Origin: Promethearchaeati archaeon
GTDB taxonomy: Archaea; Asgardarchaeota; Heimdallarchaeia; Heimdallarchaeales; Heimdallarchaeaceae
Direction of reading: 5' to 3'
Length of the DNA stretch: 64,000 nt
NCBI GenBank assembly: GCA_013166775.1
Contig: JABLTJ010000002.1
Coordinates: 78,264 to 142,263, forward strand
Part shown: piece by piece, positions 23,130 through 44,333 of the stretch
Numbering within the stretch: the stretch's first letter is position 1
Layout: each line of letters begins with the position of its first letter
Notes under the pieces: model-generated
The model's input: only the letters and a program-made list of their open reading frames with translations
Database searches by the model: none
Told to the model about the DNA's origin: nothing
Made by a program: the position numbers and the translations under genes

Positions 23130-24359
23130 ATGAGCGTTGACAGAGAAGGTTTAGAATCCAAAGTAGCCATATTGGGACTCTCACAATCTGGAAAAACTTC
23201 CATCAGACAAGTAATTTTTGAAGGATTTGCTCCAGAATCCACATCGCAGAATCCAGCAACAGTCAGAATTAACAGGAAGTTGTTCAATCTCGCAGGAAGT
23301 TCCATAAACTTATTTGATGTAGGAGGGCAGAGCGCTTATCTAAATGAAGTCTTTCAACAGTATCAAGAAAGAACTTTTTCTGATGTGAAAGCAGTTATCT
23401 TTGTTGTAGATGTATCTGATGCTGCTAACATAATGAGATCTAAATATTATTTTGATCTAACAGTTGAGAATGTCAAAGAGATAAGCAGAACTGCTAAGAT
23501 ATATGTCTTTGCTCACAAAATGGATGTTGTACCTGTCAATAAAAGACAAGCAGTACTTCAATCCATTAAAGATATCTTTGAAATCGATAATATGGAAAAT
23601 GCAGAGATTTATGGTACCTCAATCTTTGAAGATACGCTCTGGGATGCGATGCAGAAGATTCTTGCTTTGGTTTATCCTAAGGATGATAGCAAAACATTAG
23701 AAATCAAAGATGTTGTAGGGGCATATGATTTATCATTTTTAGCTGTATCAACAACTCATGGTCTTGTCCTTTATTCCCAACCAGAAGCTCTTGCAGGAGT
23801 AAATTATGAGAGGTTGAGGAATGAGTTGTCCAACACATTTTTCCCTGGAATGGTAATGGATTATGCAATTTTCTCATTGGGAAACTTTTGTGTTTTTATG
23901 AGGGAAATTGATAATGATTTAGTACTTACTTCAGTTTTTGAACACGGTCCTGATCTGGGTGATACTCGTAGTAAATTCCTAGAACTTAGTGGAAAGATAA
24001 TGCAAATCTTCCAACCTGATGAATTAATAGGACAAGCAAAGGCAAAGATGAAATCAACTCTATCAAAATACTTAGAAAATAACAAAGTAAGAGAGATAGC
24101 TACTCTTGAACGAAGGTTCGATGTTAAAGTGAATGTCAAGTGTGATATTTGTGGAAAACAAGTTCAAAAATCGATTCTAGATGTAGCTGTAGAAAATTCT
24201 GAAAAACTTGAAAGAGGAATAAAAATTACTGCAGGATTTGGAGTAACAACAATTGAGATGTATCCTATACATGAATGTATAGAAGGAATGAGAGAAATTC
24301 CAGTTTTCCTAGATAGTGATCTTGAATATAGAAGATATGATAACAGTAGACCAATCTGA
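23130..24359 (+). CDS. Rag/Gtr1-like GTPase with C-terminal roadblock domain and terminal zinc ribbon
   Basis: G1 GLSQSGKTS, G3 DVGGQ, and the RagA/Gtr1-type G4 HKMD. The C-terminal domain is roadblock-like, and CDICGKQ sits at the end. Confidence 0.7.
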   Translation: MSVDREGLESKVAILGLSQSGKTSIRQVIFEGFAPESTSQNPATVRINRKLFNLAGSSINLFDVGGQSAYLNEVFQQYQERTFSDVKAVIFVVDVSDAANIMRSKYYFDLTVENVKEISRTAKIYVFAHKMDVVPVNKRQAVLQSIKDIFEIDNMENAEIYGTSIFEDTLWDAMQKILALVYPKDDSKTLEIKDVVGAYDLSFLAVSTTHGLVLYSQPEALAGVNYERLRNELSNTFFPGMVMDYAIFSLGNFCVFMREIDNDLVLTSVFEHGPDLGDTRSKFLELSGKIMQIFQPDELIGQAKAKMKSTLSKYLENNKVREIATLERRFDVKVNVKCDICGKQVQKSILDVAVENSEKLERGIKITAGFGVTTIEMYPIHECIEGMREIPVFLDSDLEYRRYDNSRPI

Positions 24360-26315: not shown

Positions 26316-29300
26316 TTACTCAGGTTGAGTTTCTTCCAATTCTTGAGCTGCTAACATAATCATTACTGATTTCTTTCTTACTACCTCAAGCTTTTCTTTA
26401 ATCTCTGGAAGTTCTTTTTTAGCTTTAAGATCCTTAATCAAATCATCAACTTCATCATAAAGAAAATCTTGGTAATTCAGAAGGAAATTACCAAAATCGC
26501 TGTCAGCTAAAACTATAAGTGAAAGATTCTCAAACCCACCACGAGCAGCTTCATTTGAGAGTTGAATTCCATGAATAAAGCCTATCATCTTTTCTCTTGG
26601 AAGAACTATTGAACCAGTTCTTCTCCCAGCATCATGTTCTTCAAAACCAAGTGAGGAATATGCTTGGTCAGCTATCTTGAGCAAGAAATTCTCAACATCA
26701 ATTTGCATCCTATTCTTATATCTAGCAATGTTTAGAGAGTGTTCTTCCAGAAGAGGTGTTGGACCCTTTCTTTGATCGAAAATAGTTAGTATTACACCAG
26801 GAGATACAATTGAATAGTTTAAAGCTATATCTTCGTCCGTTAGGTTTGACAATAGTTCTTCAAATTCTTTTGGACGAGTTACTTTGTAAACTATGAAAGC
26901 TATTAAAGCAACAGCAAGAACACTACCTCCAATTATTAGGTAAAGCATCCAACTTGGGAAACCAGGTGGTACAATTCGAATCACTTTTTCTTCAAGTTCA
27001 AAACTACTTGAGGATCTGATATTATCACCATCAAATGTTGCATTAATCATTACATAATCAATTTCAGGAGACATAGTAAACACGACAGTTGCAGAACCTG
27101 AGAAATCTGTTGTTTTATTTAGTATAACATAAGTAGTATAATTTGTTGGAATTAATCCTTGAACTCCTGACGTTTGATCGTAACTATATGAATAGATGTA
27201 GAAATGGATTTCTTGTATTGGTACTCCTGTGTCATTTTCATATGTTAAAATACCTGTTATTGCTAGTTGTGTACCTTCTAGTACTGTGAAATTAGAAACC
27301 TGTATATCTAGGTACAAAGGTAAAGGTAATACTTCAAATTCGAATGTCAAGTTTCCTTCAGCAATTGCGTAATAGAATTTGCTTTCTACATAAATATCGA
27401 AGGAGTAATTTCCTTTTGGAAGTGCGTATGTAGAATAATTGAACCAGTATGTTGAAGTACCAGAAATATTATAGAACATAGTCGATACAGAGTTGACTTC
27501 AACATAATCAATCGATATATTTTGTCCAAGATGATCTTTTAGATTAAGATAAACAGTTACATCTTCACCATAATACACTGAAAATCTACTCTCATCTAGT
27601 ATAGACAAATCTGCTATTTTTTTGTCAACAATAAGATTTACTCTTATTGTTCTGCTTCCCCCAGCTAGTGTATAAAACTCAATGTCAACGAAAGTCACAT
27701 TACCATTTGTAATATTAGTACACTCTATCTCACAGTAGTAAATTGTACTGTCTTGTTTAGTTATATCTACTTTAAAATTATAAGATTCTTGATGATGTCT
27801 TGTATATAAATCTGTTATTTCTATTTGATTAACTGTATCTGTTACATTTACAATAAAATAAACAATGTCTGAGTAATTTGTTTGAACCGAATAAATATCA
27901 TTTATCCATTCTTTTTCCGTTGGATCTATATATTTAATATCAATGTCAGCAACTTTGATGTAGAAGGTTGCTGATGCTTTATTTGGTGCTAAACCTATTG
28001 CATCATCAAATAAATTAATTTGTAAAGTGTGATTTCCATCTACTGGTTTTACTTTGAAAATCCATGAATCTGCTTCTCTTAATTCATCAGTTTCATCATC
28101 ATCCCATTTATAGTAGAATCTAGCTAAATCTTGATTTACAGAACTATTGTACCATATTGGTGTGTTCCCTGTAAAAATATAACTCCCCCCATTGATTAAT
28201 TCTGTTAACACTCCGCTTTCATTTAGATACAATTTTATTATAGGTGCTTCAAAATCAGTAAGAAAATCAAAAATATAGGTTGCTGAACTACCTAAAACAT
28301 CAGTTGCTTCTATAACCACTGATGCAGTTTCGTTATGATCATAAAAATTCTGAGGATTTGGTAGAAAACTTATCTCGAAATCAGTTAGTGGTACATTATC
28401 ATTCCACCAGTTTTTCGTAAGATCAGAATCCCAATAATATCGTATTTCACTTACAGTTAATAGATATTCATCATAAACACTGAAACCAAAAATTGTACCT
28501 CCATTCACCGTAGTATTCTCTGGAAAAGATGAGAGTGAGATAATAGGAGCATCTGAATCAATTGTCAGTATTCTCGAAAACGCTTGAAAATTCCCAAGAC
28601 TATCATTAACAAAAATGTAGAGTAAAGCAGTTCCATCAGGTTGGCTTAAAATAAATTCATCTGTAAATTGTATTAGTGATGAACCATTCCATGCATAATA
28701 ACTGAAAACGGAATTATCATCATCAGTAATGTCAATTTGAATTGTAGCATCTGAAGGAATGTATATATTTCCATCTATCGAAGTATAATCTACTTCCAGA
28801 GGGATAGTTACATCTATTGTTGGTTTTGTTGTATCTATAATGAAAACTAATAATTTAACTTCAAAATTTCCTGCAATATCTAGAGCATATATACAGAATT
28901 CATGTTTTCCATCAGCAAGAGTGATTAGGTTAAATTGGTAGGGATAGATTAATGTTTGATTTGCTTTTTCATCAATTGAGTATAATACTATCAAATCACT
29001 TGAAAGAATATAATTATCAGTTATTGTAAAGATGAATATTGTATCAGTCGTGAATCTTGTATTATTATAAATTAAAATACTATTATCAATATTGGGAGCT
29101 GTTTGATCAACAGTGAGATTAAAGAAAAATATGTGTTCGACATCAAAAACATCAGAACAAAAAACTGTTAAGTTATGAAAACCAGGAGTAGAAGGAAGTG
29201 CATCAACTCCAGTCAAAGTTAATTGACCAGCGATTATATCTCCGTCTTCTCTTATTCCACCATCCCAGATATAACTAATAGTTCCGTTGCTTTTTTGTAC

Positions 29301-31091
29301 ATTAATTATTACTTCTTCACCACCAAGATAATAGGAATTGTTTCTTAATTCAGCTAATTCAACCAAAAATACGTTAGGATCAGTATAGAATTGAAACATT
29401 ACATTAGTTAAATGTTCATAATTATCATATGCAGAAATGTACAAATAATGATTTCCTTCAGCCGAAGGTAAGCTTGTTTGGTATATTTTTCCTTGTGCAG
29501 GAAGCCAAGGAGCATCTCCATCTGAATCCCAATGAAAATTTACATTATTGATTCCTAAATCATCATCTATCTCTACTTCAATTATTTTCCCTGGAGCATA
29601 CGTTGAACCATCAATCACATTATAAAGAATAACCGTAGGAAAATCAGAATCAAAAGTAAATTGATAGAAGAAGGTTTCAGTTGAATAGAAATCAATTATC
29701 CTCAAGGTAATATTATGTAATCCTGAAAAACTAGGATTTGTTATGTCATATGGACTACTTAATAGATACCACATTCCATTATTGTCCCACATATACTCGA
29801 CCGTATCAACGCTAAATGCCGTGAAATTTAATATTGATCCTCCCCCAATCGTTGAACCATTTATAGGAGAATTCAGTACTAAATTCGTAGTCGATGCATC
29901 ATAACCAAATCGATAAAATTCTGTTCTTGTATTGCCAAAAACAGGATCAATAGCTTCAGTCTCCAAATCATGCCAACCATGCACAGAAGGCAGATTTATT
30001 GTTGTTTGATTTTCAAAAGGTATCCAACTCCCCCCATCCCATCTGTAAGAGCTAGTAGAGCCATCAGTAACATCAATAGTCATTTCTTGAGCTGTTTGAT
30101 ATACTGTCTCATTTGATGCACCTAAAAGATTAATATCTGGAATTCTTTTGGATCTCATGTAAAGCTGAATTCCAGTCATTCTAGTTACATTATTTATCGT
30201 GTATGTATTACTATAGATATCATCATTAATGGTCCATGTTGTTGAACTTGTAGTACCATCATAAGGATAACCTGTCATATGCAAAAAAGAACCTGTAGAA
30301 GGTACTGAACTGAAACTTAATTGTATATCCCATCTTAATCTATATCCTGCTGGTATTGTAGTTGTAGAAATTGTGTCTGAAAAAGTTCTATATCCAGTCC
30401 ACATACTTATTGGGTAAGTCTGAGTTCTCGATGCAATTAATTGTGGATTGAGAGGATCAGCTGGATTAAATAAGTATAATAGCACTCTATAACCTATAGT
30501 AACAGCTTCAGAAAAAACTGCAGAATCATTAACAGTTAACCATGACCACCAATGAACTTTGCCTGAAATTTCATAATCCTCAGTAAAAACAGGACTATAT
30601 ATTTTAGAAGGCTCATTAGGATAACCTTGTTCTCTTAAATAGAACCAATTGGTATCATTAGGCCAAGTTTTAGGTACAGAACTAAGAGCTCTCCAGTAAA
30701 ACTCTTTGTTTAGGGTACCATCATTCTTAATCTCATCATATGGTACCCATTCTACAATGTTTCGTCTTCCATATGGATCTTCCCCAGAAGGATCTGTTAT
30801 TAGGGTTTCACCTACTCGTGATTCACCATAGATATAGCCAGTACCTCCAGGAAAGAAAGCGAAAGTTTCGAAATCACCAAGAGTTTCAGATTTTGTTACA
30901 GGATCATTATAAGGTGTATCACTTCTTGCGTCTGAATTCTTTGTATTGTCATTCATTTCTAAGGATTTATCAAGTTTTCTTGTATCATTTTTTTCTTTAT
31001 AATCTATATCCAAAAGACGGTTAATAACTAGTGTATTTAAGCATAAAATTATCAAGAATGTTCCAAACAATTGGTGGTTTTTATTTTTCAT
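26316..31091 (-). CDS. giant single-pass surface protein (1591 aa) with a conserved cytoplasmic roadblock-like domain
   Basis: Signal peptide, a roughly 1330 aa extracellular region rich in N-X-S/T sequons and beta-type repeats, one TM helix (SWMLYLIIGGSVLAVALIAFIVY), and a 220 aa cytoplasmic domain. Confidence 0.7.
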   Translation of the reverse strand: MKNKNHQLFGTFLIILCLNTLVINRLLDIDYKEKNDTRKLDKSLEMNDNTKNSDARSDTPYNDPVTKSETLGDFETFAFFPGGTGYIYGESRVGETLITDPSGEDPYGRRNIVEWVPYDEIKNDGTLNKEFYWRALSSVPKTWPNDTNWFYLREQGYPNEPSKIYSPVFTEDYEISGKVHWWSWLTVNDSAVFSEAVTIGYRVLLYLFNPADPLNPQLIASRTQTYPISMWTGYRTFSDTISTTTIPAGYRLRWDIQLSFSSVPSTGSFLHMTGYPYDGTTSSTTWTINDDIYSNTYTINNVTRMTGIQLYMRSKRIPDINLLGASNETVYQTAQEMTIDVTDGSTSSYRWDGGSWIPFENQTTINLPSVHGWHDLETEAIDPVFGNTRTEFYRFGYDASTTNLVLNSPINGSTIGGGSILNFTAFSVDTVEYMWDNNGMWYLLSSPYDITNPSFSGLHNITLRIIDFYSTETFFYQFTFDSDFPTVILYNVIDGSTYAPGKIIEVEIDDDLGINNVNFHWDSDGDAPWLPAQGKIYQTSLPSAEGNHYLYISAYDNYEHLTNVMFQFYTDPNVFLVELAELRNNSYYLGGEEVIINVQKSNGTISYIWDGGIREDGDIIAGQLTLTGVDALPSTPGFHNLTVFCSDVFDVEHIFFFNLTVDQTAPNIDNSILIYNNTRFTTDTIFIFTITDNYILSSDLIVLYSIDEKANQTLIYPYQFNLITLADGKHEFCIYALDIAGNFEVKLLVFIIDTTKPTIDVTIPLEVDYTSIDGNIYIPSDATIQIDITDDDNSVFSYYAWNGSSLIQFTDEFILSQPDGTALLYIFVNDSLGNFQAFSRILTIDSDAPIISLSSFPENTTVNGGTIFGFSVYDEYLLTVSEIRYYWDSDLTKNWWNDNVPLTDFEISFLPNPQNFYDHNETASVVIEATDVLGSSATYIFDFLTDFEAPIIKLYLNESGVLTELINGGSYIFTGNTPIWYNSSVNQDLARFYYKWDDDETDELREADSWIFKVKPVDGNHTLQINLFDDAIGLAPNKASATFYIKVADIDIKYIDPTEKEWINDIYSVQTNYSDIVYFIVNVTDTVNQIEITDLYTRHHQESYNFKVDITKQDSTIYYCEIECTNITNGNVTFVDIEFYTLAGGSRTIRVNLIVDKKIADLSILDESRFSVYYGEDVTVYLNLKDHLGQNISIDYVEVNSVSTMFYNISGTSTYWFNYSTYALPKGNYSFDIYVESKFYYAIAEGNLTFEFEVLPLPLYLDIQVSNFTVLEGTQLAITGILTYENDTGVPIQEIHFYIYSYSYDQTSGVQGLIPTNYTTYVILNKTTDFSGSATVVFTMSPEIDYVMINATFDGDNIRSSSSFELEEKVIRIVPPGFPSWMLYLIIGGSVLAVALIAFIVYKVTRPKEFEELLSNLTDEDIALNYSIVSPGVILTIFDQRKGPTPLLEEHSLNIARYKNRMQIDVENFLLKIADQAYSSLGFEEHDAGRRTGSIVLPREKMIGFIHGIQLSNEAARGGFENLSLIVLADSDFGNFLLNYQDFLYDEVDDLIKDLKAKKELPEIKEKLEVVRKKSVMIMLAAQELEETQPE

Positions 31092-31112: not shown

Positions 31113-34100
31113 TTAATTTTCCATTTTTTGCGCAGCTAACATAATTTGGACAGATTTCTTTCTGATTTTTATCAGAATTTCATTTATCTCAGTTAGTTCT
31201 TTCTTCGATTTAAGAGCAGAATTTAGCAAATCTGCTTCATCATAAATATATTCTTGGTAGTTTAATAGATAAGTTCCAAAATCAGTATCAGCTAAAACTA
31301 TAAGGGACAGATTTTCAAATCCTCCTCGTGCAGCTTCATTTGGGAGTTGAATACCATGAACCCATCCAATCATTTTTTCACCAGGCAAAACTATAGATCC
31401 CACTCTTCTTCCAACATCATGCTCTTCAAAACCTAAGGAACTATATGCTTGATCTGATATTTTAAGTAGGAAGTTTTCTATTCCCATTCTTAACCTAATA
31501 CTGTATTTTTCAAATTTCAAGCTATGATCCATTACTAAAGGTACAGGACCTTTCTTCTGATCAAAGATAGATAAAACTGCACCTGGTGAGATAATTGAAT
31601 AATTTTCTTCAACTTCTTCATCAGTAATCTCTTCTAGGAATTTTTGGAATGGTTTTCTTCGTGTTACTTTATATACAATTATAGAAATAATTAATGCAAG
31701 AGCTAAACTTCCACCAATAATAATGTATAATAGCCAAGAAGGTAAACCGGGAGGAGGGGTTGTAAAAACTGGTGCCTCAAGAGCAGAATTTATTATTCCA
31801 TAATAATCATCTCCAGAGTAACTAACTTCAATATCAACATAATCTATATCAGCACTCATCGAGAAAGCCTTTTGGAAATAACCTTCAAAATCAGTAGTTA
31901 CTGTAAAAACTTCTAGATCATCATAATTAGCGGTATCGAAAGCATATACTCTTTTTCCATTTTCCTTTAATTTAATATAAATTGTAATTTCAATCTCTGC
32001 TAAACTTATTGGGGTTCCATTAAGTAATGTTAGTTGTCCAGTTATAATTAATTGAGCTTCTTCTATAATTTCATGTTCTGAAACTTCAATTGTTAACATA
32101 GTTTCGAGAGGATTTATTTCAATATCAATGATACTCTCCCCTATAAAGAAATTTGATTCAACGTAAATTACAAGAGAATAATTTCCTTTTCCTTGAAACA
32201 TTACAGAGGAGATATTGAATTGATAGAACCTATCAGGAAGCTCTGTAAAGTTAAAAATATGGGTATCTCCATCAATAATAATCATGATAATTCTTTCATT
32301 TTCACCCACATTATTTTCCAGTTTCATTACAATAGTGATATTTTCTTCGTATGTGACCTCTTGAATACTTCTGGAATCTATTGAAAGGCTTCCTTCTTTC
32401 TTTTCAATATCTAGATATATTCTAATGAGCTGTTTACTTTCTTCAAATTTGTAGAATTGAATCTCAATTTCTGTTAGTAAACCTTTAGTTACATTTGTTG
32501 CAATAATCAGAATCTCATATGTTATGTTATCTAATTTGATAATTTCAACAGAGAGGTTTAATTTCATATCTTTTATTATTTTATATTGAAGTCCAAGTAT
32601 TTCTAATCCATATGTTGCATCAGTTATATTTAGTACAAAACTTACATTATTACCGTATATCAAATTTGTTGAATTTTCATATGCATACAGGGTTTCAATA
32701 AAATCGTTTGATTTTGAGAAATTCAAAACTATGTTATCTACGAAAAAGTAGAAGGTTTGTGTAACTTGATTAGGAAATAATCCCACAGAGTCATCAGTTA
32801 GAATGACAGTCAAATTATGGAAACCATCGATTAGAGGAGTTTCTAACGTCCAACTTTCACTTTCATTTAAAATTTGGATATTCTCACTATAGCCATCCCA
32901 ATAATATTCGAAAGAAACTAAATCATCATTCACAGAAGCGTTATATACAATCTGAATTCCACTTTTGACATAATAAACACCTGAAGCATCAACCCATTTA
33001 TCTTTAGCTGGATTAAAAATAGCTAGGTCGACTATTGGAGCTTCAATGTCAATCAAAAACAGAAAAGTATAGGTAAAATTATTTCCAACTATATCTTCAA
33101 TATAAACAGAGAATTTCGCTGTAGTATCGTGTTGATAAACAGGGAGAACACTTATGCTAAGATCGTTTATTGGGGAAGTAAACCAAAATCCAGTAAGTTT
33201 ATCCCAAGAATAGCTAACCTCGTCAATAGTTAAATCTGAATAATCTTCAATTTCAAACTCAAGTAGAGTTTCATAATTTATTTTAGTGGTTACATTTTCA
33301 TAGTTAAGTAGAGTTATACTAGGAATTGTTCCATCTATTATAAGATTAAACTGAATACTACGAGCATTACCTAAAGAATCTATAGCTCTAATATGGAGGA
33401 TACTATTTTCGTCAGAATAAGCCAAATAAAAATGATAGCTAAAATCAATATATGGAGGATCACCCCATGCATATTCTGTTGTTACTAAGGGATCATCATC
33501 TACGATAGTAACTATTACTTCTGCATTAAAAGGAACATATTTATTACCATCAATGGTTACAAAATCAACTAAATCTGGTATTGATACAATTATTATTGGT
33601 TTTGTTGTATCTACAACAAAAACAAGAAATTTCTCATCTATATTTCCTGCTATATCAATTACTTTGATGTTTAAATAATGCGTGCCATCTTCTAAGTAAA
33701 TCAATGCGTATTGATAAGGCTCATTTAGGAGCCTATTTGCTTTACCATCTATTGAATACAATACAGTCAAATCAGATCCAGAAACATAATTATCTGTGAT
33801 ATTAAAAATAAATATTTGATCAGTTAGGAATCTGCTGTTATTATAGATAGAAATATCAGAATCAATCACTGGTGCTTCTAGATCTACAATGAGAATGAAA
33901 TAAAGTATATATTGAACATCTGAAGAGTCGTAAGTTATTATTGTAAGATTGTGAGAACCTGCAGTTAAAGGAATACCTTCTGAACCTTCTAATGTAAGTG
34001 TTGAACTGAAAATTGAACCTTCTTCTTCTATCCCACTATCCCAAATATAAGAAACTGTACCATTACTTTTTTGGATAGTTACCTTAACAGTTTCTCCTCC

Positions 34101-35870
34101 TTGATAGTATGAATTATTTGTCAATTCTTGTAGCTCGACAAGAAATACATTACTATCTGCATAAAAGTAGAAAACCGTACTATTAACTTGGTTTAAAATA
34201 TCAGAAGCATATACATACAAATAATGATTACCATCAGTGATTGGTATATTGGTTCTGTATATATTTCCAAATTCAGGATTCCATGTAGAATTTGAATGAG
34301 AATCCCAGTGATATTTAACATTTTTAATACCTGAAGAATCAGAAATCTCAACATCAATTGTTTTTAATGGAGCATAAGTTGATCCATTAACAACGTTATC
34401 AAGTAGAATAGATGGTATATCGGAATCAAATGTAAAATAATAGATGTAAATATCACTAGAATAGAAATCCGTAGTTCTTATCGTCAAGTTGTGTTCTAAT
34501 TCAAACACTGGGGCTAGTATATCATAAGGAGATAATAGAGGGATCTGTGTTTCGCTACTATCCCACTCGTATGTAACAGTATCCACAGCATAAGCTGAAA
34601 AATTTAGATAAGTTCCAGCTTCAACCGTTGATCCATTTGAATATGGTTCATGTAGTTCTAAGTTTATAATTGAAGCATCATAACCGAATTGATAATAAGC
34701 TGTTCGTGTATTATTATACACTGGATCACTGGCAACAATTTCTAAATCATGCCAACCAGCAGTTGTTGGAAGTGTAATTAGTGTTGAATTATCAAAAACA
34801 TTCCAAATTCCACTATCCCACCTGTACTTACTTATTGAACCATCAGTGACATCAATAGTCATTTCTTGAGCATTCTGGTATACAGTGTTATTCATAGCAT
34901 TATATAAATCGATATCCGGAGTATTGTTTTCATGCATATAAAGTTGAACACCAAGAATTCCATCTACATTATATATAGTGTAACTATTGGAATGAATACC
35001 ATCATTAATGTTCCAATCCATGTTTGTTCCTGAGATCCCTGAATCAGAATATTGTCCATCTTGTATTATGTTCAAAGTACAATGACCTTGTGTTGCTCCT
35101 ACATCACTATATGCATACTCATATGTTAATTTGAATCTATCACCTGCGGGAACAGTATACGATGTTAGCGTGCTATTTGTTTCTAACCATTCCCAATACT
35201 CTGTATCGGTTGGAGTATTAATCTTCGGTAATAGATATGCAACTGAAGTTATTTCTGTAGAAATATTCGTACTAGAATGATAGTGCCAGAGAATGATTTT
35301 TAATGTTATATCTATTGAGTTAAAATATGAATCATAGGGATCGTCGTTTAAATCTCTGTGCATATTAAAGATATAATGAACTTTATCTTCTATAGTTGTG
35401 TCATAATCTAAAACTGGACTGTACATAATTGATTTTAAACCTGAAGCCCAATAATCAACTCCAAAATAATAAGCATCATTTTCAGAAGGTACTGGAGCAT
35501 AGGTTATATCTCCAACTCCAAATCTTTTAGTATTTATATCCCAAGCATCATGCCCAAGAATACTATCATAAGCTGTCCACTGATAACCTGATCCATTTGC
35601 ATCCAGTTGAGAAGTGAATGTCTTATAGCTGAAGAAAGATTGTGTTTTAAAATCTCCTTCAATTACCTCTTGACGAATTTTATTCTTTGCTCCTTCTTCA
35701 ATAGAATTATCATTTCTATTATCTATTTTTTCTAGATTAGTATCTGAGGAATAATCTAGAAAATCACTCATTTGCTGCTCTTCTGGCATTGAAAGTTGAT
35801 AAAACACTAATGAATTAATAAACACGAATATTAGCATAAATGATAATGCTCTACTAGTATACAACTCCAT
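31113..35870 (-). CDS. giant single-pass surface protein (1585 aa), tandem paralog of 26316-31091
   Basis: Same architecture as its neighbour. The cytoplasmic tail is nearly identical between the two paralogs, whereas the ectodomains are much more diverged. Confidence 0.7.
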   Translation of the reverse strand: MELYTSRALSFMLIFVFINSLVFYQLSMPEEQQMSDFLDYSSDTNLEKIDNRNDNSIEEGAKNKIRQEVIEGDFKTQSFFSYKTFTSQLDANGSGYQWTAYDSILGHDAWDINTKRFGVGDITYAPVPSENDAYYFGVDYWASGLKSIMYSPVLDYDTTIEDKVHYIFNMHRDLNDDPYDSYFNSIDITLKIILWHYHSSTNISTEITSVAYLLPKINTPTDTEYWEWLETNSTLTSYTVPAGDRFKLTYEYAYSDVGATQGHCTLNIIQDGQYSDSGISGTNMDWNINDGIHSNSYTIYNVDGILGVQLYMHENNTPDIDLYNAMNNTVYQNAQEMTIDVTDGSISKYRWDSGIWNVFDNSTLITLPTTAGWHDLEIVASDPVYNNTRTAYYQFGYDASIINLELHEPYSNGSTVEAGTYLNFSAYAVDTVTYEWDSSETQIPLLSPYDILAPVFELEHNLTIRTTDFYSSDIYIYYFTFDSDIPSILLDNVVNGSTYAPLKTIDVEISDSSGIKNVKYHWDSHSNSTWNPEFGNIYRTNIPITDGNHYLYVYASDILNQVNSTVFYFYADSNVFLVELQELTNNSYYQGGETVKVTIQKSNGTVSYIWDSGIEEEGSIFSSTLTLEGSEGIPLTAGSHNLTIITYDSSDVQYILYFILIVDLEAPVIDSDISIYNNSRFLTDQIFIFNITDNYVSGSDLTVLYSIDGKANRLLNEPYQYALIYLEDGTHYLNIKVIDIAGNIDEKFLVFVVDTTKPIIIVSIPDLVDFVTIDGNKYVPFNAEVIVTIVDDDPLVTTEYAWGDPPYIDFSYHFYLAYSDENSILHIRAIDSLGNARSIQFNLIIDGTIPSITLLNYENVTTKINYETLLEFEIEDYSDLTIDEVSYSWDKLTGFWFTSPINDLSISVLPVYQHDTTAKFSVYIEDIVGNNFTYTFLFLIDIEAPIVDLAIFNPAKDKWVDASGVYYVKSGIQIVYNASVNDDLVSFEYYWDGYSENIQILNESESWTLETPLIDGFHNLTVILTDDSVGLFPNQVTQTFYFFVDNIVLNFSKSNDFIETLYAYENSTNLIYGNNVSFVLNITDATYGLEILGLQYKIIKDMKLNLSVEIIKLDNITYEILIIATNVTKGLLTEIEIQFYKFEESKQLIRIYLDIEKKEGSLSIDSRSIQEVTYEENITIVMKLENNVGENERIIMIIIDGDTHIFNFTELPDRFYQFNISSVMFQGKGNYSLVIYVESNFFIGESIIDIEINPLETMLTIEVSEHEIIEEAQLIITGQLTLLNGTPISLAEIEITIYIKLKENGKRVYAFDTANYDDLEVFTVTTDFEGYFQKAFSMSADIDYVDIEVSYSGDDYYGIINSALEAPVFTTPPPGLPSWLLYIIIGGSLALALIISIIVYKVTRRKPFQKFLEEITDEEVEENYSIISPGAVLSIFDQKKGPVPLVMDHSLKFEKYSIRLRMGIENFLLKISDQAYSSLGFEEHDVGRRVGSIVLPGEKMIGWVHGIQLPNEAARGGFENLSLIVLADTDFGTYLLNYQEYIYDEADLLNSALKSKKELTEINEILIKIRKKSVQIMLAAQKMEN

Positions 35871-36046: not shown

Positions 36047-36823
36047 TTAGATAAATGAATCTTCATTTTCTTGATTGATTATTTTTTGCTCAATCTTAGC
36101 AACTTGATCTCTGCTGTTAATATAATCAATAAGCTCAAACGAATGAAAGAAAGAATTCAAAACGGTATCTTGAAGGTTATCTAATCCTTCTCTTGTAGTG
36201 TTTGAAATCTTAACTGAATGAATTCTATCTGAACCTATTTTAATCCCTATTCTATCTTCAATACTTTTGAGAAGATATCTTTTACCTTCTTCAATCATAC
36301 TATCATTTGTAGTAACAAATAATCCGTGATCTAAATGAGTTCCAAGAAGAATAATGCTAGTAAGATCTGAAATTAGTTCATGTTCGATAGCTCTATTTAA
36401 CCAATATTCTAAATTCTGAAAAGATTTGACATCTGCTAAATTATATGTCATAATAAGAATAACCACATCATTAATGCTTCTCACATTACGATACATATCT
36501 ACAGCATCCTCAAATGCTAATCCTTCCCCTATTTCAGATCTACCCTTTTGTCCAGGCAGAATAAACAATTGAGAGCTAATCGTAACTTTATATTTCTCAA
36601 TGTTTGAATACAATATGAAGTAATCAAATTCCAGATTAACTGATTTGGATAGGTTCGTACAATCAGTTGTGTCGTAAAAATGCCCCTTCTTGTATTGAGC
36701 TAAATTCAAGGCAGTATGAGTTTTACCTGTATGACCATCACCAATGAAGACTACTCCTCCTGTGCAAGTGATATCTGTTTCTCTACAGATTAAGAGTCTA
36801 TTCTTTGGTGAATCAAACCTCAT
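36047..36823 (-). CDS. atypical small GTPase-like P-loop protein
   Basis: P-loop GDGHTGKT. G3 and G4 are degenerate (LPGQ and THLD). Lies 177 bp upstream of the giant-protein pair on the same strand. Confidence 0.55.
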   Translation of the reverse strand: MRFDSPKNRLLICRETDITCTGGVVFIGDGHTGKTHTALNLAQYKKGHFYDTTDCTNLSKSVNLEFDYFILYSNIEKYKVTISSQLFILPGQKGRSEIGEGLAFEDAVDMYRNVRSINDVVILIMTYNLADVKSFQNLEYWLNRAIEHELISDLTSIILLGTHLDHGLFVTTNDSMIEEGKRYLLKSIEDRIGIKIGSDRIHSVKISNTTREGLDNLQDTVLNSFFHSFELIDYINSRDQVAKIEQKIINQENEDSFI

Positions 36824-36927: not shown

Positions 36928-39897
36928 TTAGTAGTATGTTTCTTTCTTCCTTATGAACATCTTATAAACTTCTAGGGTAACCAAAGGTAGAGCTATAGCT
37001 ACTAATAATATGATCCAGTCTACTACTCCTAATGCTACAAATTCTACCCTAAAACCTAACAGATTATTCGCAAGGTTTTGTAGAGGAACAACGTAGATTA
37101 ATAGAATATGAATAAGAGGAACTATCATTACTAGAATAAATACTAACCATTTCCAATCTTCCTTGAAGGATTTGAAAACTGATTTATTCAACCTACGAAG
37201 ACTAAAGACTACTAGACTTTCTGAAATAACCAATATTGTTACAAGCATCGTTCGTGCCTTTGCATGTGACCAGTTAATTGGAGAGGAAGCAGTTGCATTA
37301 ATATCACCTAATAGAATCAAATCAATTCCTGATTGATTGAACTCTGTTATAGGTATAATACCACGATATGTTAAGAAGTAAACCAGAAAACCAGCAAAGG
37401 CTAAAACTAAAGCTAGTATAACAAGAGCCCAAACATATCTTTTATTGAATATTTCTTCATCATCTCTTGGGGGATATTCCATTATTTCCTTAGAAATACT
37501 ATCGAAGATGAATGCTAAGGGGGGTATAAGATGAGCTGAAGAGAAAATATACACTCTCTGGAAATCATTCACGAAATGAAATCCTGGAATAAATGAAGTT
37601 GAGAAGTAGAGAATTGCTTCAGCAATATTAAGTGTAATGTAGAAGAAGATCATAACCCTTATCCTGTCAAATAAACCTCGACCTTCTCTTATCCCTAGAA
37701 CAGTGCTTGTAAAACTATCATCTGAGATGATGACATCAGAAGCTTGTTTAGCTACTTCAGTTCCTTCAATCCCCATGCATATTCCTACATCTGCATTAGT
37801 TAATGCAAGTGAATCATTTACTCCATCTCCGCACATTGCTATTATTTTGTTTATTTTTTGATATCTTTCTACAATTACTTGTTTATGTTGAGGTGATACA
37901 CGAGCGAAAATTCTTGTATTGTAAAAATCAGTTTCTGTTAGATCTTTTATCTTATTTCCTTCTACTACTAGTTCTTCCCCTTGAATTAACCCAACTTCTT
38001 TTGCTATAGCTTTTCCAGTAAGTGGACTATCTCCTGTTATCATAATGGTTGTTACTCCTGCCCTCACACAGTCTTCTACAGCGCTTTTTACTCCGTATCT
38101 TGGTGGATCTAGCATACATACAAAACCATTGTAAATCATTTCCTTTTCTGTTTCATCTCTATCATGGTCAAGCAACACATCTCTTGACATTGGTCGAACA
38201 GCTAAAGAAATAACTCTATATCCTTGTGATGCAAAATCACTGACATACTTGTTGATTAAATTGATATCGTTTTCTTCTAGAGGTTTGTGATCAAAAGGAC
38301 TCCCAATATGCGAACATAGAGGTAGAACTGTTTCTGTTGCCCCTTTACAGAACATGGAAAAACCTCTCTCATCTTGGAATGTTCTACTCATTCTCTTAAG
38401 AGTGGAATCAAAGTTGAATTCCATTACATATCCATAATTTTCTCTTATCTCCTTCTCATTCAAACCTGATTTGTTGAACAGTGCAAGAAAGGCTCCATCT
38501 GTTGGATCTCCTGTAGTTTTCCATGAAATCTGATGATGAGGTTCAAACACTTCTTCAACTATTAGATGAGCATTATTGTTCAACATTCCTCCAACTAGTA
38601 AAAACTCTAAAATTGAATCTTTCGCGAAGGGTTTTATGTTATCAGGAATCATCATATCTTCAGGTATTTCAGTTGTATCTTTACCTATAGGAAAAATTGC
38701 ACCTTGATCACTAAAACCTACACCTGATACGCCATAAAAATACTCAGTATCCCACACCTTTTGTATTGTCATCTGATTAGTGGTGATTGTTCCTGTTTTA
38801 TCAGAACACAAAATTGAGCACCTCCCTAGAGTTTCAACAGCTGATAGATTTCTGATAATGACTCTATCTTTTGCCATTGATAAGACTCCAGTTAGCAGAA
38901 TTAAAGTTGTCAAGAGAGGGATACTGATTGGCATGATAGCCATTGATGTTGTGATGGAATTAATTGCATCATCTATATAAAGCATATCTGTTCGGTTGTT
39001 AACAGCAAAATGGATTATAGCCTTATAAGTTAAAGAAACAACTAAAAATACAACTACAGCAAAACCCAGCCATTTTGCTAGTCGATTCACTTTTGTTCGA
39101 ATTGGTATTTCGTTGCTTCCTATTTCTTGTAGCTCTGTTGATAATCTGCCGATTTCTGTATAGAGACCTGTATTAACTACAATTGCATTTGCTCTTCCTG
39201 CTTCAATAAAAGTACCAGTATAGAGCATATTTACTCTCTGTGAGATTGGAGTATCTTCATCTATAGTTTTTGTAGGTTCATTTGACTTTTCAACTGCTAC
39301 TGATTCTCCAGTTAGGGCTGATTCATTGACCAGACAATTACTTGAATAGATAATTCGAGAATCAGATGGAACTCTATCTCCTTGATCGAGTTCGATTAAA
39401 TCTCCTGGGACTAATACTGCTGCACCTAGAGTTTCAGGTACTCCATCTCTAATAACAGTTGAAGTTGGTGCTGAAAGCTTATGAAGAGCATCTAATTTGA
39501 ATTGAGCCCTTATTTGTTGGAATATCGTAAAAACAATATTTACGCCTATAATGGCCATCCAGAAACCTATTTGGCTCCACACATCAGAAGAAGGGATTTT
39601 CATAACAAAAGTTTTAATCAAACCTAAAATCACCATCAGTATTGAGACGATTAAATAGATATTAATCAGCCAATTCAGCAATGGAGCTATGTAAACATCC
39701 CAGACTGAACCTTTGATTTTAGGAAGAACGTTTTCTCCGTAGTTTACTAATCTACTATCAGCTTCTTCTTTTTTCAAGCCAAACCTGACATCAGTGTCCA
39801 ATTCATCACAAATCTCGTCTATTGTTCTATTATGAGGGCAGAGATTTTTTTGTGTGATCTTCTCTTCAGATTTGGTTTCTCTTTTCATTCTTGTCAA
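36928..39897 (-). CDS. P2-type cation-transporting P-type ATPase (Ca2+/Mg2+ pump-like)
   Basis: Motifs DKTGTIT, MITGDSPLTGKAIA and GDGVNDSLAL. 989 aa with about 10 TM helices. Confidence 0.85.
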   Translation of the reverse strand: MTRMKRETKSEEKITQKNLCPHNRTIDEICDELDTDVRFGLKKEEADSRLVNYGENVLPKIKGSVWDVYIAPLLNWLINIYLIVSILMVILGLIKTFVMKIPSSDVWSQIGFWMAIIGVNIVFTIFQQIRAQFKLDALHKLSAPTSTVIRDGVPETLGAAVLVPGDLIELDQGDRVPSDSRIIYSSNCLVNESALTGESVAVEKSNEPTKTIDEDTPISQRVNMLYTGTFIEAGRANAIVVNTGLYTEIGRLSTELQEIGSNEIPIRTKVNRLAKWLGFAVVVFLVVSLTYKAIIHFAVNNRTDMLYIDDAINSITTSMAIMPISIPLLTTLILLTGVLSMAKDRVIIRNLSAVETLGRCSILCSDKTGTITTNQMTIQKVWDTEYFYGVSGVGFSDQGAIFPIGKDTTEIPEDMMIPDNIKPFAKDSILEFLLVGGMLNNNAHLIVEEVFEPHHQISWKTTGDPTDGAFLALFNKSGLNEKEIRENYGYVMEFNFDSTLKRMSRTFQDERGFSMFCKGATETVLPLCSHIGSPFDHKPLEENDINLINKYVSDFASQGYRVISLAVRPMSRDVLLDHDRDETEKEMIYNGFVCMLDPPRYGVKSAVEDCVRAGVTTIMITGDSPLTGKAIAKEVGLIQGEELVVEGNKIKDLTETDFYNTRIFARVSPQHKQVIVERYQKINKIIAMCGDGVNDSLALTNADVGICMGIEGTEVAKQASDVIISDDSFTSTVLGIREGRGLFDRIRVMIFFYITLNIAEAILYFSTSFIPGFHFVNDFQRVYIFSSAHLIPPLAFIFDSISKEIMEYPPRDDEEIFNKRYVWALVILALVLAFAGFLVYFLTYRGIIPITEFNQSGIDLILLGDINATASSPINWSHAKARTMLVTILVISESLVVFSLRRLNKSVFKSFKEDWKWLVFILVMIVPLIHILLIYVVPLQNLANNLLGFRVEFVALGVVDWIILLVAIALPLVTLEVYKMFIRKKETYY

Positions 39898-40074: not shown

Positions 40075-40869
40075 GTGAGTACGATGAGTCAACAACCCAC
40101 AGGTCCTCCCGCTGGTCCTCCACGAGGTCCAATGTTTATGAGAGACGAATATCAGAACTTAATTGATGAATTTACTAAAGATATAAAAACAGAGTTGAAA
40201 AATGAAGTACTAAGCTTACTCTTAGTAGGTAGTGTTGTTACACAAGAGCATATTGCAGGAGAATCAGATTGTGATTTTATTATTATTCTTAAAGATAAGG
40301 CATCTGGAGAAAAACTACAAGAATCAATGGAAAAAATAAGCAAAATAGTATTCAAATATCTTGAAGATCCTTTGTACAGCTCCATTTTAGATGTTGAAGT
40401 TCTTGGAGATGATGAAATACCAAAGCAGGGAGAGGGTTCTGAATATCCATGGACTAAAATATTGGTTGCTCAAAGAGGAAAGGCACTAATTGGAGATAAT
40501 CCTTTTGCTAAACTTAAGGTAGATGAAGGTCAGATAAAAGAAGCAGCAAAAGAGATGGCAAGAGTTTTTCTAGAACAAATGGAAGAAATTCCTACACTTG
40601 AAGAAGTAGATGATTATGATAAACTATATCTTACTGTCGAAGCAGTATTAGGCTGTGGGTGTGCTTTTCTCTACTATAATGGAGAAAAAGAGTTCTATAG
40701 AAGCTCAGCAATTATCTTGTTCGAAGATAAGTATCAAGATAAAATTAACATTGAACCTCTCCAAACAAGTCACAGATTAAGACTTGCTGCTAAATCTATT
40801 GAAACAAAAAATTTCATCCCTAACTCATTAGCTTTCTGTAAAGAAGTTAATAAAATACTTAATGCATAA
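40075..40869 (+). CDS. nucleotidyltransferase (Pol-beta superfamily) domain protein
   Basis: GSVVTQEHIAGESDCDFIII fits the GS-x9-DxD pattern. Pro/Gly-rich N-terminus, and the true start may be an internal Met. Confidence 0.5.
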   Translation: MSTMSQQPTGPPAGPPRGPMFMRDEYQNLIDEFTKDIKTELKNEVLSLLLVGSVVTQEHIAGESDCDFIIILKDKASGEKLQESMEKISKIVFKYLEDPLYSSILDVEVLGDDEIPKQGEGSEYPWTKILVAQRGKALIGDNPFAKLKVDEGQIKEAAKEMARVFLEQMEEIPTLEEVDDYDKLYLTVEAVLGCGCAFLYYNGEKEFYRSSAIILFEDKYQDKINIEPLQTSHRLRLAAKSIETKNFIPNSLAFCKEVNKILNA

Positions 40870-40882
40870 ACGAGGTTATTGA

Positions 40883-41539
40883 ATGTCATTAAAAACTAGT
40901 ATTGATATTCTGGTTCAGAATATCGAGAGATCTTTAATTTTAATGCTTGGTGAATCAGGTACTGCTAAAGAAGAAATAGCTTTTCGTTTCCTTGAAGATG
41001 GTTTAGCAAAAAAAGAGACAGTACTAGTGGTGCTATTTTCGCATTCTTCTTTTGATTATTTAGAGGAATTGAAAAAACGAGAGATTGCTGTTGATAAATA
41101 TCTCAAAGATGGAACACTGAATTTCATTGATGCTATTTCTTTTAGATCTATTCCTAAAGAAAAACCACCGAATACAATTATATTAGAAAATGCAAGTGAT
41201 TTACTTGCTCTTTCAATAAACCTGAATGACATTTCTCTGAAAACTACTAAGTTACGAATTATCTTTGATCAGCTATCGCTCATCGCATTATATAATTCTG
41301 CAATGCAAGTAGTTAATTTCTTACAATCTTTAGCTGCTAGAGTAAGACAAAGGAACCAAAGTGCTCTAATGCTACTAGACACAGGAGTAATCGATGATCA
41401 AACTGAAAAAACACTTCATACAATTGTTGATATGGTAGTAGAAACAAAGAGAACAGAAGAACCTTCTGGGGTTCAGCAACTTGTCAGAATCAAATTTGCA
41501 AAACATAAATATGAACCCAGATGGGTGCAAGTAGTATAA
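40883..41539 (+). CDS. KaiC/RecA-like ATPase-fold protein with a degenerate P-loop
   Basis: LGESGTAKEE stands in place of a Walker A motif, with a RecA-like beta-strand pattern. Lies 13 bp downstream of the NTase gene. Confidence 0.4.
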   Translation: MSLKTSIDILVQNIERSLILMLGESGTAKEEIAFRFLEDGLAKKETVLVVLFSHSSFDYLEELKKREIAVDKYLKDGTLNFIDAISFRSIPKEKPPNTIILENASDLLALSINLNDISLKTTKLRIIFDQLSLIALYNSAMQVVNFLQSLAARVRQRNQSALMLLDTGVIDDQTEKTLHTIVDMVVETKRTEEPSGVQQLVRIKFAKHKYEPRWVQVV

Positions 41540-41807: not shown

Positions 41808-44333
41808 TTGAGTATACTATGTATTTGGAGTATTATGAAATGGACAATATTAAATGTCTTGCTCATTATAGTTATCATAACTACTTTATACCACCCATTC
41901 TCTCAAATAATAGAGAATGATATGCCTGAGGGGCCGGAATTATCTAATACCAGAACTAAGGAGCAGTCTAATGTAATTAAAGTGGATTATATTACACAAT
42001 ATGAGGATTATTACAGTAATATACACAAACAACCCAATTCATTTCAAAATATTGGAGAACCTCGTTCTGTTCAATTTTTATGGCAAAATTCTGAACAATT
42101 TCTGAATTTATTTAATCAGACAGACATTATTATTTCTGATAAAGAAGAAATGATGTATAGAGAAATATTGAATTTTTCACATATTGGAGCTCTTCCTATT
42201 ATAAGTGCTGTCGAAGATTATGACCCAATCCTGTCTCCTGAAATAAATTATATCCAAAAAAGTGAGACTCTATACATGGGATTTCAAATAAATGGTTCAC
42301 AAGTTGTTAAAATTAATGGATTTTGGATTTATCTTCGTGGGGAATCAGAAGGTATAATTAGATTTCAACTGTATCCTGCAAAACCTGGTGTTGAAGCAGT
42401 TACTCTTCCAAATACTACATCACCTTTAACTCAAGAAATCGATACTCCAATATCACCAAATATTCTATTAGGAGAAGAAAGATGGATTTGGTTAGGGATA
42501 GATGAAACATTAATCCTTGATCCACTTGACACTTATGCAAATACATTTTATATTGGAATCAGTAGACCTGATCAAGATTCCTCAAAAATTAACTGGGTAT
42601 GTTGTTCTGATAATTCATGGCCCGATGATAATGATGAAGGGGATGCATATGCATATACATTTGATCTCACTTATCTACAAAAAGATTTCTTTCTTAATTA
42701 TTCTATTTCACCAGTATTAGATCATCCCTATCCAACAGATATCAATTTAAAGGTAAACAATACTGCAATCTCTAATCAATTAACGCCAGGAATAGGGAGA
42801 TGGGATAGTGATGAATTAGTCCCTGCAATTAATATGACAAATAATAAAATCTCTTTATCAATAACATATTCATGGCCTGATTTCTATCAATGGCAAATTA
42901 ATTATGATGTTATATGGTATGGATTTTTCTACGAAAATAGTATGGCTGATACAGAATATCAAGTATCGGTTGATCAATCCACTTCTGATTGGAGTATCTC
43001 ATTTGTAGCAGATTATCCTAGTAATTCAGAAAATCAGATGATGAATGTTAGCATAGAAAAAGAATGGACGGTTTTGTCTGTATATAGAAATACGATAAAT
43101 CACACTTATTGTACGGAATCTCCTTGCAACCTATTGATTCAGGAAGCAAGTGATGGTGTATGGGAGATTAATTGTATTTCTCAAAACAAAATTATTGAAA
43201 TAGATATCTTGGATATAAAAAACAAACCAATCATTGAATCATACTATGATGAAGTAGTAAAAATCTGCGGTAAAATCTTAGAGCCAAATGGGGAGAAAGT
43301 ATCAAGTGGACGAAGCAGTCTTTATATTTATGATCCTAATGAAGTAGAAAAATATTGTGAATTAGATTGTCTGATTGATAATTCTTCTGAATACTCAGTA
43401 ATTTTCTTATGGGATATCCATTCAGAATTTCAAATTGAAGGAAATTTTATAATCAATTTAATCTGGTCTAACGGAACAGAAGCAGGAATTACGAACGCCA
43501 ATATTTTTATAAAAATCCCAATTCCACCCTTAAAAAGGATTTTTACTTATCTAGGTTGGTCAGGTTTAGGTGTGTTAGTCTCAGTTAGTGTACTATTTTT
43601 GATTAGACAAAGGTATTATGTCCCACAAAAAAGAGCACATCTTCTTCGGTTGAAGACAATGATGTATGAATATCAAGATTCGATAAAATTAACTCGATTG
43701 TTAATTATTCATAAGCAATCCGGTTTATGTTTTCTGGATCCAATGGCTGATGAAAAGAAAATTGATGCAAATCTTATGGCGGGTTTACTTCACGCCTTTT
43801 CATCTTTTGGAGGTAGTCTTTTAGAAGAACATTCTTTTATTATGGAAAAAGAAGGAGAGACTATTCTTCAACATATGAACTACAAAGACCATCATATTGT
43901 AATGTTTGATGGTCAAATTACTCGAATTGCTGCTATTTATACTAGTATTCCAAGTGAGAATATAAAGAATCAACTAAATGAATTTTCAAAGATTTTCGAA
44001 GAGCAATTTTACAATGAACTAACTAATTGGACAGGGGACTTAGATAAATTTTCATATTCTATAAATCTTATTGAAAAGATTTTTGCTCTTTCATTTATTT
44101 TACCACACAAAGTAAAACTAATAGATTTAGATGAAATTAATCTTAACAAATTGGAAAAGAAAATTTATAATTACAGTTCGAAACTAAAGGAAACTAAAAA
44201 TTATTTTTATTTGGAAGATCTTCTTAATAATTACAATGATAAAAAAGAAAAAAAAGTTCTATATGCATTAGAAGCGATTATCTCTCTACGGCAGAAGGGA
44301 ATCCTCTTCTCATATAATATTGAAAAAGAATAA
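41808..44333 (+). CDS. membrane protein (841 aa) with a large ectodomain, one TM helix and a cytoplasmic roadblock-like domain
   Basis: N-terminal TM segment, roughly 560 aa extracellular region, TM helix IFTYLGWSGLGVLVSVSVLFLI, then cytoplasmic LLIIHKQSGLCFLDPMADEK...HHIVMFDGQITRIAAIY. Confidence 0.55.
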   Translation: MSILCIWSIMKWTILNVLLIIVIITTLYHPFSQIIENDMPEGPELSNTRTKEQSNVIKVDYITQYEDYYSNIHKQPNSFQNIGEPRSVQFLWQNSEQFLNLFNQTDIIISDKEEMMYREILNFSHIGALPIISAVEDYDPILSPEINYIQKSETLYMGFQINGSQVVKINGFWIYLRGESEGIIRFQLYPAKPGVEAVTLPNTTSPLTQEIDTPISPNILLGEERWIWLGIDETLILDPLDTYANTFYIGISRPDQDSSKINWVCCSDNSWPDDNDEGDAYAYTFDLTYLQKDFFLNYSISPVLDHPYPTDINLKVNNTAISNQLTPGIGRWDSDELVPAINMTNNKISLSITYSWPDFYQWQINYDVIWYGFFYENSMADTEYQVSVDQSTSDWSISFVADYPSNSENQMMNVSIEKEWTVLSVYRNTINHTYCTESPCNLLIQEASDGVWEINCISQNKIIEIDILDIKNKPIIESYYDEVVKICGKILEPNGEKVSSGRSSLYIYDPNEVEKYCELDCLIDNSSEYSVIFLWDIHSEFQIEGNFIINLIWSNGTEAGITNANIFIKIPIPPLKRIFTYLGWSGLGVLVSVSVLFLIRQRYYVPQKRAHLLRLKTMMYEYQDSIKLTRLLIIHKQSGLCFLDPMADEKKIDANLMAGLLHAFSSFGGSLLEEHSFIMEKEGETILQHMNYKDHHIVMFDGQITRIAAIYTSIPSENIKNQLNEFSKIFEEQFYNELTNWTGDLDKFSYSINLIEKIFALSFILPHKVKLIDLDEINLNKLEKKIYNYSSKLKETKNYFYLEDLLNNYNDKKEKKVLYALEAIISLRQKGILFSYNIEKE

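Follow-up and report, generated by a model that had tools for sequence, protein, structure and literature searches.

We characterized, by sequence comparison and structure prediction, a gene at positions 41808 to 44333 of the plus strand of a 64,000-nucleotide window (the whole stretch of DNA that was analyzed, from contig JABLTJ010000002.1 of assembly GCA_013166775.1), whose product is predicted to be a glycoprotein of the cell surface that spans the membrane once (type I); the source is an Asgard archaeon, probably of the Heimdallarchaeia. In the program-made list of open reading frames (ORFs), the gene is an 841-amino-acid (aa) frame with a TTG start, and an identical 841-aa product is deposited at NCBI as NPD87491.1 under the name "hypothetical protein [Asgard group archaeon]." A second assembly calls the gene from the ATG at 41835, which gives 832 aa, and an identical product of that length is likewise present in public collections. 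The ATG at 41835, rather than the TTG at 41808, is probably the true start, because a Shine-Dalgarno-like GGAG (41827 to 41830, plus strand) lies 4 nucleotides upstream of it and the protein then opens with a canonical signal-like N terminus, MKWTILNVLLIIVIITTLY; from this ATG to the stop codon, the gene spans 41835 to 44333. Residue numbers below follow the 841-aa product, except where the 832-aa numbering is stated. Kyte-Doolittle hydropathy picks out two hydrophobic segments, residues 2 to 35 and 581 to 599. The N-terminal one (MKWTILNVLLIIVIITTLYHPF..., 41835 to 41912) is predicted to be signal-like, and the second is a predicted transmembrane (TM) helix (residues ~581 to 599; 43548 to 43604), in keeping with the TM segment that precedes the tail in most of the best family matches. 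Directly after this helix comes the basic stretch RQRYYVPQKRAHLLRLK, so that, by the positive-inside rule, the last 242 residues (the tail) are predicted to be cytoplasmic. The ~540 residues between the two segments, with 11 N-X-S/T sequons and 8 cysteines, would form an extracellular head (residues ~36 to 578; 41913 to 43541) in which no known domain was recognized. The ectodomain/TM/cytoplasmic layout that a first-pass annotation of this DNA had ascribed to the 841-aa ORF is real, as judged from the ORF list, hydropathy, and NPD87491.1, and the tail sequence strings quoted there occur in the protein exactly as written.

The same annotation had proposed that the tail is a roadblock/MglB-like domain, and this proposal holds as a predicted fold but not by Pfam. 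Neither the whole protein nor the tail matches any Pfam model, even at E ≤ 10, and the curated threshold of the Roadblock/LC7 family (PF03259) is reached by neither; across the family, a single one of 36 tails matches Pfam Robl_LC7 (E 2e-4). Nothing significant came out of Pfam, NCBIfam, or PDB sequences when the whole protein, the head, the tail, and the C-terminal subdomain described below were used as queries, and the PDB sequences searched with a tail profile yielded no solved roadblock protein. Structure prediction was more informative. AlphaFold2 (AF2), supplied with an alignment of 36 tails, produced a model with a mean predicted local distance difference test score (pLDDT) of 90.1 and a predicted template modeling score of 0.83, compared to a pLDDT of only 37 for the single-sequence run, which was unusable. 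Across the first ~140 residues past the TM helix, the modeled tail has the order alpha-beta-beta-alpha-beta-beta-beta-alpha, with a five-stranded antiparallel sheet packed between one helix, which follows beta2, and a pair made of the N- and C-terminal helices. Crystal structures of Asgard roadblock proteins have this same arrangement of a five-stranded sheet with one helix against an N-/C-terminal helix pair (Tran et al. 2024, PMC10933270).

In the model, roadblock helix 1 (model residues 2 to 30, protein residues 599 to 627; 43602 to 43688) is a juxtamembrane helix that continues the TM helix as a single unbroken helix with a block pLDDT of 94 to 95. The roadblock core that follows (residues 628 to 733; 43689 to 44006) is delimited by the AF2 model, the Foldseek matches, the conserved columns, and the profile alignment to a GTPase C-terminal domain that we take up below. 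It comprises beta1 (model residues 31 to 38, protein residues 628 to 635), beta2 (44 to 46, protein 641 to 643), helix 2 (57 to 77, protein 654 to 674; DANLMAGLLHAFSSFGG), the strands beta3, beta4, and beta5 (90 to 95, 98 to 104, and 108 to 114, within protein residues 687 to 711), and helix 3 (121 to 136, protein 718 to 733). Helix 2 is the most conserved element of the tail and holds 6 of its 14 invariant or near-invariant positions (L59, G62, F63, A66, F70, and neighbors, in model numbering). A Foldseek search with the model returned 39 PDB matches at E ≤ 1e-3, headed by MglB, Roadblock3 of the Asgard archaeon MK-D1 (9jue), the MP1/p14 and Ragulator chains (among them LAMTOR2/3), and dynein LC7; the best of these have a probability of 1.00, E values of 1.5e-4 to 1e-3, and TM-scores of 0.6 to 0.7 when normalized by the target. 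The Streptomyces roadblock structure 3kye is also among the matches, and longin domains (Sec22b, VAMP7) rank slightly below the roadblock ones. A longin domain of the folliculin/DENN type was considered for the tail and rejected, as the modeled tail opens with the helix that marks the roadblock permutation and that is absent from the longin order (beta-beta-alpha-beta-beta-beta-alpha-alpha), and no Folliculin or longin Pfam model was matched. These results support the conclusion that the tail holds a complete roadblock fold of the MglB/LAMTOR type, predicted with high confidence; since the Pfam model does not detect the family, this assignment is made from the predicted structure.

Beyond the roadblock core, a helical linker of short helices (residues 735 to 764, model residues 138 to 167; 44010 to 44099) stops just before an invariant proline (model P169) within an "LPH" motif. 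The remaining residues, 767 to 835 (44106 to 44312), make up a C-terminal subdomain that is conserved across the family and whose modeled elements are a strand (model residues 170 to 172), three helices (184 to 199, 205 to 211, and 217 to 232), and a second strand (236 to 238). Going by this order of secondary structure, the last ~70 residues are tentatively winged-helix-like, although the subdomain matches no helix-turn-helix (HTH) or winged-helix entry in Pfam or among PDB sequences.

A connection between this tail and a small GTPase comes from the window itself, which encodes Arf-like, Gtr1/RagA-like, and Ras-like GTPases. A hidden Markov model (HMM) of the tail has one sole other match among the proteins of the window, the C-terminal domain (residues 183 to 331; 2070 to 2516, minus strand) of the Arf-like GTPase encoded at 2067 to 3062, at 9 bits. 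In hhalign, the tail profile aligns with this domain as a single sequence with a probability of 55.9% (E 1.1e-4, 132 columns), and with the same domain accompanied by 11 metagenome orthologues with a probability of 83.2% (E 8.7e-6, 130 columns), the GTPase-domain alignment being a shallow one of 11 close sequences. Six further proteins of the window served as controls, the C-terminal parts of three other GTPases among them, and none exceeded 0.5%. An HMM restricted to the roadblock domain was also run against the 1,646 ORFs of all fetched loci, where it matched 89 family members strongly; down to E 0.06, its only other matches were the 11 GTPase orthologues that retain the domain, each of them within that domain. 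The comparison with this GTPase, which the first-pass annotation had put forward, thus came out positive, and we regard homology between the membrane-fixed roadblock domain and the GTPase's C-terminal domain as backed by moderate but consistent evidence. In Rag-type GTPases, such C-terminal domains mediate pairing (PMC10933270). The GTPase gene (minus strand) shares base 3062 with a second Arf-like GTPase gene on the same strand (3062 to 4066), which suggests that the two form an operon pair. Both proteins carry a C-terminal domain of ~135 to 150 aa, but only that of the first is related to the tail, the second giving 0.4% in hhalign.

The protein belongs to a large unannotated family. An exhaustive search of 1.84 billion cluster representatives (clusters at 50% identity) with the tail as the query returned 600 representatives at E ≤ 1e-3 and 233 at E ≤ 1e-10. 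Other searches recovered little of the family: from a word-indexed protein search, the tail retrieved no homologue and the alignment just 4, and no relative turned up when species-representative genomes were scanned with the whole protein. Among the 150 best matches, which extend over ~240 aa, the tail comes directly after a TM segment in 136, and the conserved tail is the end of the protein in most family members. Members range from 199 aa (fragments) to 1,959 aa; the names that they bear are without exception "hypothetical protein," from Asgard lineages (Asgard group, Promethearchaeota, Hermod-, and Helarchaeota). A scan seeded with one subfamily returned 80 loci, all of them in Asgard or unclassified archaeal metagenome-assembled genomes. 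As all members and loci that bear a name come from Asgard archaea, the family appears, as far as it has been seen, to be confined to this group.

The head, too, is shared. The ectodomain of the studied protein matches those of its ten closest tail relatives directly (E 1e-55 to 1e-138), and after three profile iterations, a head module of ~500 aa was found in 78 of 121 family ectodomains, N-terminal and covering most of the profile wherever the N terminus of the member is intact. It was retrieved by no model or sequence of Pfam, NCBIfam, or the PDB. Within the subfamily, whole proteins are 28 to 40% identical, compared to 32 to 37% for the tails, and D259, D264, D267, and E268 (832-aa numbering; consensus PDxxDEGDAY) are invariant in the ten closest relatives. 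Longer paralogues insert some 450 to 900 extra residues between the head and the TM helix, such as an Ig-like Big_1 domain in P0053. Judged from these comparisons, the studied protein is the minimal form of a family whose head and tail travel together. The idea of a variable ectodomain on a constant tail, with which the first reading of the sequence had accounted for this architecture, is thus partly borne out: it holds for the tail, whereas the head does not vary freely and is conserved in 78 of the 121 ectodomains. Some members also have additions behind the winged-helix-like end: P0053, P0071, P0079, P0083, and others carry an extra helical domain of ~89 aa that starts with PRTNYLI, and P0025, P0027, P0031, P0050, and others carry an extra Lys-/Glu-rich, helical, coiled-coil-like region of ~200 aa that ends in a conserved ...ASEIFKLG... 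motif. A tandem winged helix, with the 89-aa extension of the paralogues as a second copy of the C-terminal subdomain, was considered and found unsupported (hhalign, 0.85%).

What might such a protein do? Roadblock and longin domains dimerize through beta3 and a single "top" helix and provide small GTPases with platforms (Levine 2013, PMC3747258), and most complexes that contain roadblock or longin domains also contain GTPases (PMC3747258). Because of this platform role elsewhere, and because helix 2 is the best-conserved element of the tail, we infer that its most likely role is that of a platform fixed to the membrane, which would pair with another copy of the tail or with a GTPase's roadblock domain and thereby place or regulate a small GTPase beneath the cell membrane, a reading to which we give an even chance. 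In such a scheme, the tail would dimerize with itself or with another roadblock domain, for example the one fused to the GTPase at 2067 to 3062, and the strong conservation of helix 2 is consistent with a dimer formed through beta3 and the top helix. The pairing would build a docking or regulatory platform for a small GTPase beneath the membrane, as Ragulator does for Rag GTPases on lysosomes. Binding of a ligand or clustering of the heads could then change how the tails pair and hence the recruitment of GTPases; coupling from outside to inside is possible because the TM helix and roadblock helix 1 are predicted to be one rigid helix. Taken as a whole, the proteins might be a large family of true transmembrane receptors of Asgard archaea. 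The head would be coupled through one rigid helix to a roadblock platform, where Arf/Rag-like GTPases would be recruited or regulated, perhaps through pairing with the roadblock domain that they carry themselves, but we hold this fuller version to be doubtful, clearly more so than the platform itself.

Several observations weigh against a role in GTPase signaling, and some of them speak for the main rival to the GTPase platform, namely that the protein is a structural surface protein or adhesin whose roadblock tail only dimerizes and so clusters the protein, or anchors it to the cytoskeleton or envelope, in the manner of roadblock/LC7 within dynein, with no small GTPase involved. No conserved GTPase, roadblock, or other signaling gene neighbors the family in five independent contexts and 80 Loki-type loci, none of the 150 best family members carries a GTPase domain, and within the window a distance of 5 kb and a P-type ATPase gene separate the studied gene from the closest GTPase gene, which is on the opposite strand; the adhesin reading accounts readily for this lack of a genomic GTPase link in every context examined. 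The gene neighborhoods are nevertheless weak counterevidence, because Asgard GTPase and roadblock genes are generally not in shared operons: in MK-D1, GTPase genes are generally not found in operons with roadblock or longin genes (Tran et al., PMC10933270). The head contains no recognizable ligand-binding domain, as far as sequence comparison can tell, and is large, sequon-rich, and conserved, which speaks for the adhesin reading, and the Ig-like domains added in long paralogues (Big_1 in P0053) are typical of surface and adhesion proteins. At the level of sequence, moreover, membership of the tail in Roadblock/LC7 fails, and the fold itself is common to proteins that bind no GTPase: dynein LC7, which is among the Foldseek matches, acts without GTPases, as do some other roadblock proteins (PMC3747258). 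What speaks against a purely structural tail is that it is specifically related to a roadblock domain fused to a GTPase of the same genome, that, on its surface, conservation is highest in the helix from which the GTPase platform of known complexes is built, and that complexes with roadblock or longin domains mostly contain GTPases (PMC3747258). On balance, we regard the adhesin reading as unlikely, although it is the alternative to be taken most seriously. An extracellular enzyme or transport-associated protein, in which the head carries the function and the tail regulates or localizes it, is improbable: the invariant acidic and aromatic residues of the head, among them the four named above, could form a metal or sugar site, and the head is as conserved as the tail, but no enzyme family in Pfam or NCBIfam and no enzyme among PDB sequences was matched. 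Still less probable is a membrane-tethered regulator whose winged-helix-like end binds nucleic acid or is released by proteolysis, comparable to one-component membrane-bound transcription factors. The helix-strand-helix-helix-strand order of the last ~70 residues is compatible with a winged helix, and this part of the protein is conserved family-wide; it lacks, however, any sequence match to an HTH or winged-helix family or to a solved structure, shows no sign of being repeated in the variants with the 89-aa addition, and has a counterpart in NPRL2 and NPRL3, where a longin plus winged-helix module sits in a GTPase-regulating complex (PMC3747258).

The first-pass annotation had grouped the studied protein with two giant proteins encoded elsewhere in the window, at 26316 to 31091 and 31113 to 35870 (both minus strand), as one modular family of sensors with a constant roadblock-like tail and variable ectodomains. 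The giants, 43% identical to each other, do have the gross layout attributed to them (signal, long ectodomain, one TM helix, and cytoplasmic tail), which hydropathy confirms: their TM helices lie at about residues 1378 to 1405 and 1376 to 1403, and are followed directly by tails of ~185 aa (26319 to 26888 and 31116 to 31673, minus strand). With the studied protein, they thus have in common a large surface part, a single TM helix, and, immediately behind it, an alpha/beta tail of 185 to 242 aa. The likeness between the tails themselves was refuted, however, at the level of detectable homology. BLASTP with the studied tail against the giants' tails found nothing, an HMM built from 132 family tails did not match the giants at E ≤ 10 with filters off, and hhalign of the studied tail against the family of the giants' tails gave probabilities of 0.13% and 0.6%. 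The heads fared no better, as the head profile of the studied protein does not match the giants, and the 34 close homologues of the giants' tails are a set separate from the family described here, with names that are all Heimdall labels except for one Thorarchaeota. A looser kinship could still be argued from the fold: Pfam Folliculin, whose matched region is the longin domain of folliculin, is weakly matched by 9 of 14 members of the giant-tail family (best E 5.6e-4, below the curated threshold), and roadblock and longin domains are circular permutations of each other (PMC3747258). If these weak matches are real, the giants' tails probably belong to the roadblock/longin fold class as well. 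With three independent profile tests negative, a single family spanning all three proteins is very remote, and the window appears instead to hold two unrelated surface-protein families of the same gross topology, with tails from two permuted versions of one fold class. The giants differ from the studied protein in family, in head, and in having Rag-like GTPase genes next to them, and a membrane-anchored folliculin-like longin domain beside such GTPases would merit a study of its own. The two Gtr1/RagA-like genes that adjoin the giants lie at 23130 to 24359 (plus strand) and 24360 to 26207 (minus strand), with a Ras-like gene at 36047 to 36823 (minus strand) on their other side; the product of the second Gtr1/RagA-like gene (615 aa) has a C-terminal extension of ~430 aa without similarity to the roadblock tail. 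The giants' tails carry the motif AARGGFENLSLIVLAD.

Compared to known systems, a membrane-fixed roadblock platform has several partial counterparts. MglB of Myxococcus and Thermus is the best structural match (M. xanthus, 6hjm; E 1.5e-4; root mean square deviation, 3.6 Å over ~119 residues) and shares the complete alpha-beta-beta-alpha-beta-beta-beta-alpha fold. MglB, however, is small and soluble, and its gene is next to that of the GTPase MglA, whereas the studied domain shares its chain with a TM helix, a 540-aa extracellular head, and a C-terminal addition of ~100 aa, has no GTPase gene next to its own, and escapes Pfam. In Ragulator, roadblock domains (LAMTOR2/MP1-p14 and LAMTOR4/5, held by LAMTOR1) dock roadblock-bearing GTPases at the cytoplasmic face of a membrane, as we infer for the studied tail; LAMTOR chains are among its top structural matches, and its genome of origin encodes GTPase-roadblock fusions, one of which is homologous to the tail. 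Ragulator differs in using a separate, lipidated anchor subunit without an extracellular part, whereas here the TM anchor is in the same chain. The soluble Asgard roadblock proteins (MK-D1 RB, 7yh1, and Roadblock3, 9jue) have the same fold, come from the same group of organisms, and are among the top matches, but they are stand-alone dimers of ~120-aa chains, and no transmembrane architecture is described for them in PMC10933270. NPRL2 and NPRL3 of GATOR1 resemble the tail in following a platform domain of the roadblock/longin class with a winged-helix-type domain (PMC3747258), which is tentative in the studied tail; they differ in being soluble and of the longin permutation, and the top 50 fold matches include no NPRL chain. 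The conservons of Streptomyces distribute a membrane sensor (CvnA, kinase-like), a roadblock protein (CvnB), CvnC, and a GTPase (CvnD) over separate proteins encoded in one operon. The studied protein, unlike these, combines a sensor-like head and a roadblock domain in one chain and is not part of such an operon.

Asgard genomes are full of small GTPases and of roadblock and longin proteins, and how these are recruited to membranes, and by which signals, is a question on which the present family bears. GTPase-roadblock fusions were already known (PMC10933270), the Asgard roadblock superfamily comprises 130 asCOGs, many of them in new multidomain architectures (Liu et al. preprint), and the lipid anchors of eukaryotic Rabs are missing from Asgard GTPases (PMC10933270). 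In the literature that we could search, from which most subscription journals were absent, we came across no TM-anchored roadblock family whose extracellular head is conserved. The family comprises at least 600 clusters at 50% identity and is invisible to Pfam and NCBIfam. A roadblock platform fused to a TM helix and a conserved head offers a testable route to membrane targeting and outside-in signaling, and the tail and the GTPase at 2067 to 3062 are a defined pair on which to test it. If the receptor version were true, a signaling axis would lead from receptor to small GTPase at the cell membrane in the prokaryotes most closely related to eukaryotes, and Ragulator-Rag would have a counterpart in a single polypeptide.

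The immediate surroundings of the gene vary between genomes. Upstream of it on the same strand, across a gap of 268 bp, lie the genes for a KaiC/ArlH-like RecA-superfamily ATPase of 218 aa (40883 to 41539) and a nucleotidyltransferase-domain protein (40075 to 40869), and the downstream genes in the window encode ZnuABC; none of the KaiC-like ATPase, nucleotidyltransferase, and ZnuABC genes lies beside the orthologues in four other contexts. The closest homologues of the neighboring genes are 90 to 93% identical and are labeled Heimdallarchaeaceae. The Loki-type subfamily has a synteny of its own, in which a P-type ATPase, an ATP-grasp protein, the family gene, a ~172-aa protein, and RadA follow one another. 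A P-type cation ATPase is also encoded in the window (36928 to 39897, minus strand), ~2 kb upstream of the family gene and on the opposite strand; in about 31 Loki-type loci (e.g., L001:1-2475), it is again found ~2 kb upstream but on the same strand, and it is absent beside the closest orthologue (L082), so its recurrence may be due to chance. Finally, a gene for a GTP-binding protein of ~360 to 390 aa occurs in 14 Loki-type loci (among L001 to L020, L027, L069, and L073), not adjacent to the family gene but 0.7 to 2.7 kb upstream of it and on the opposite strand, as seen solely via its similarity to the Arf-like G domain of the window (E 1e-7 to 1e-11).

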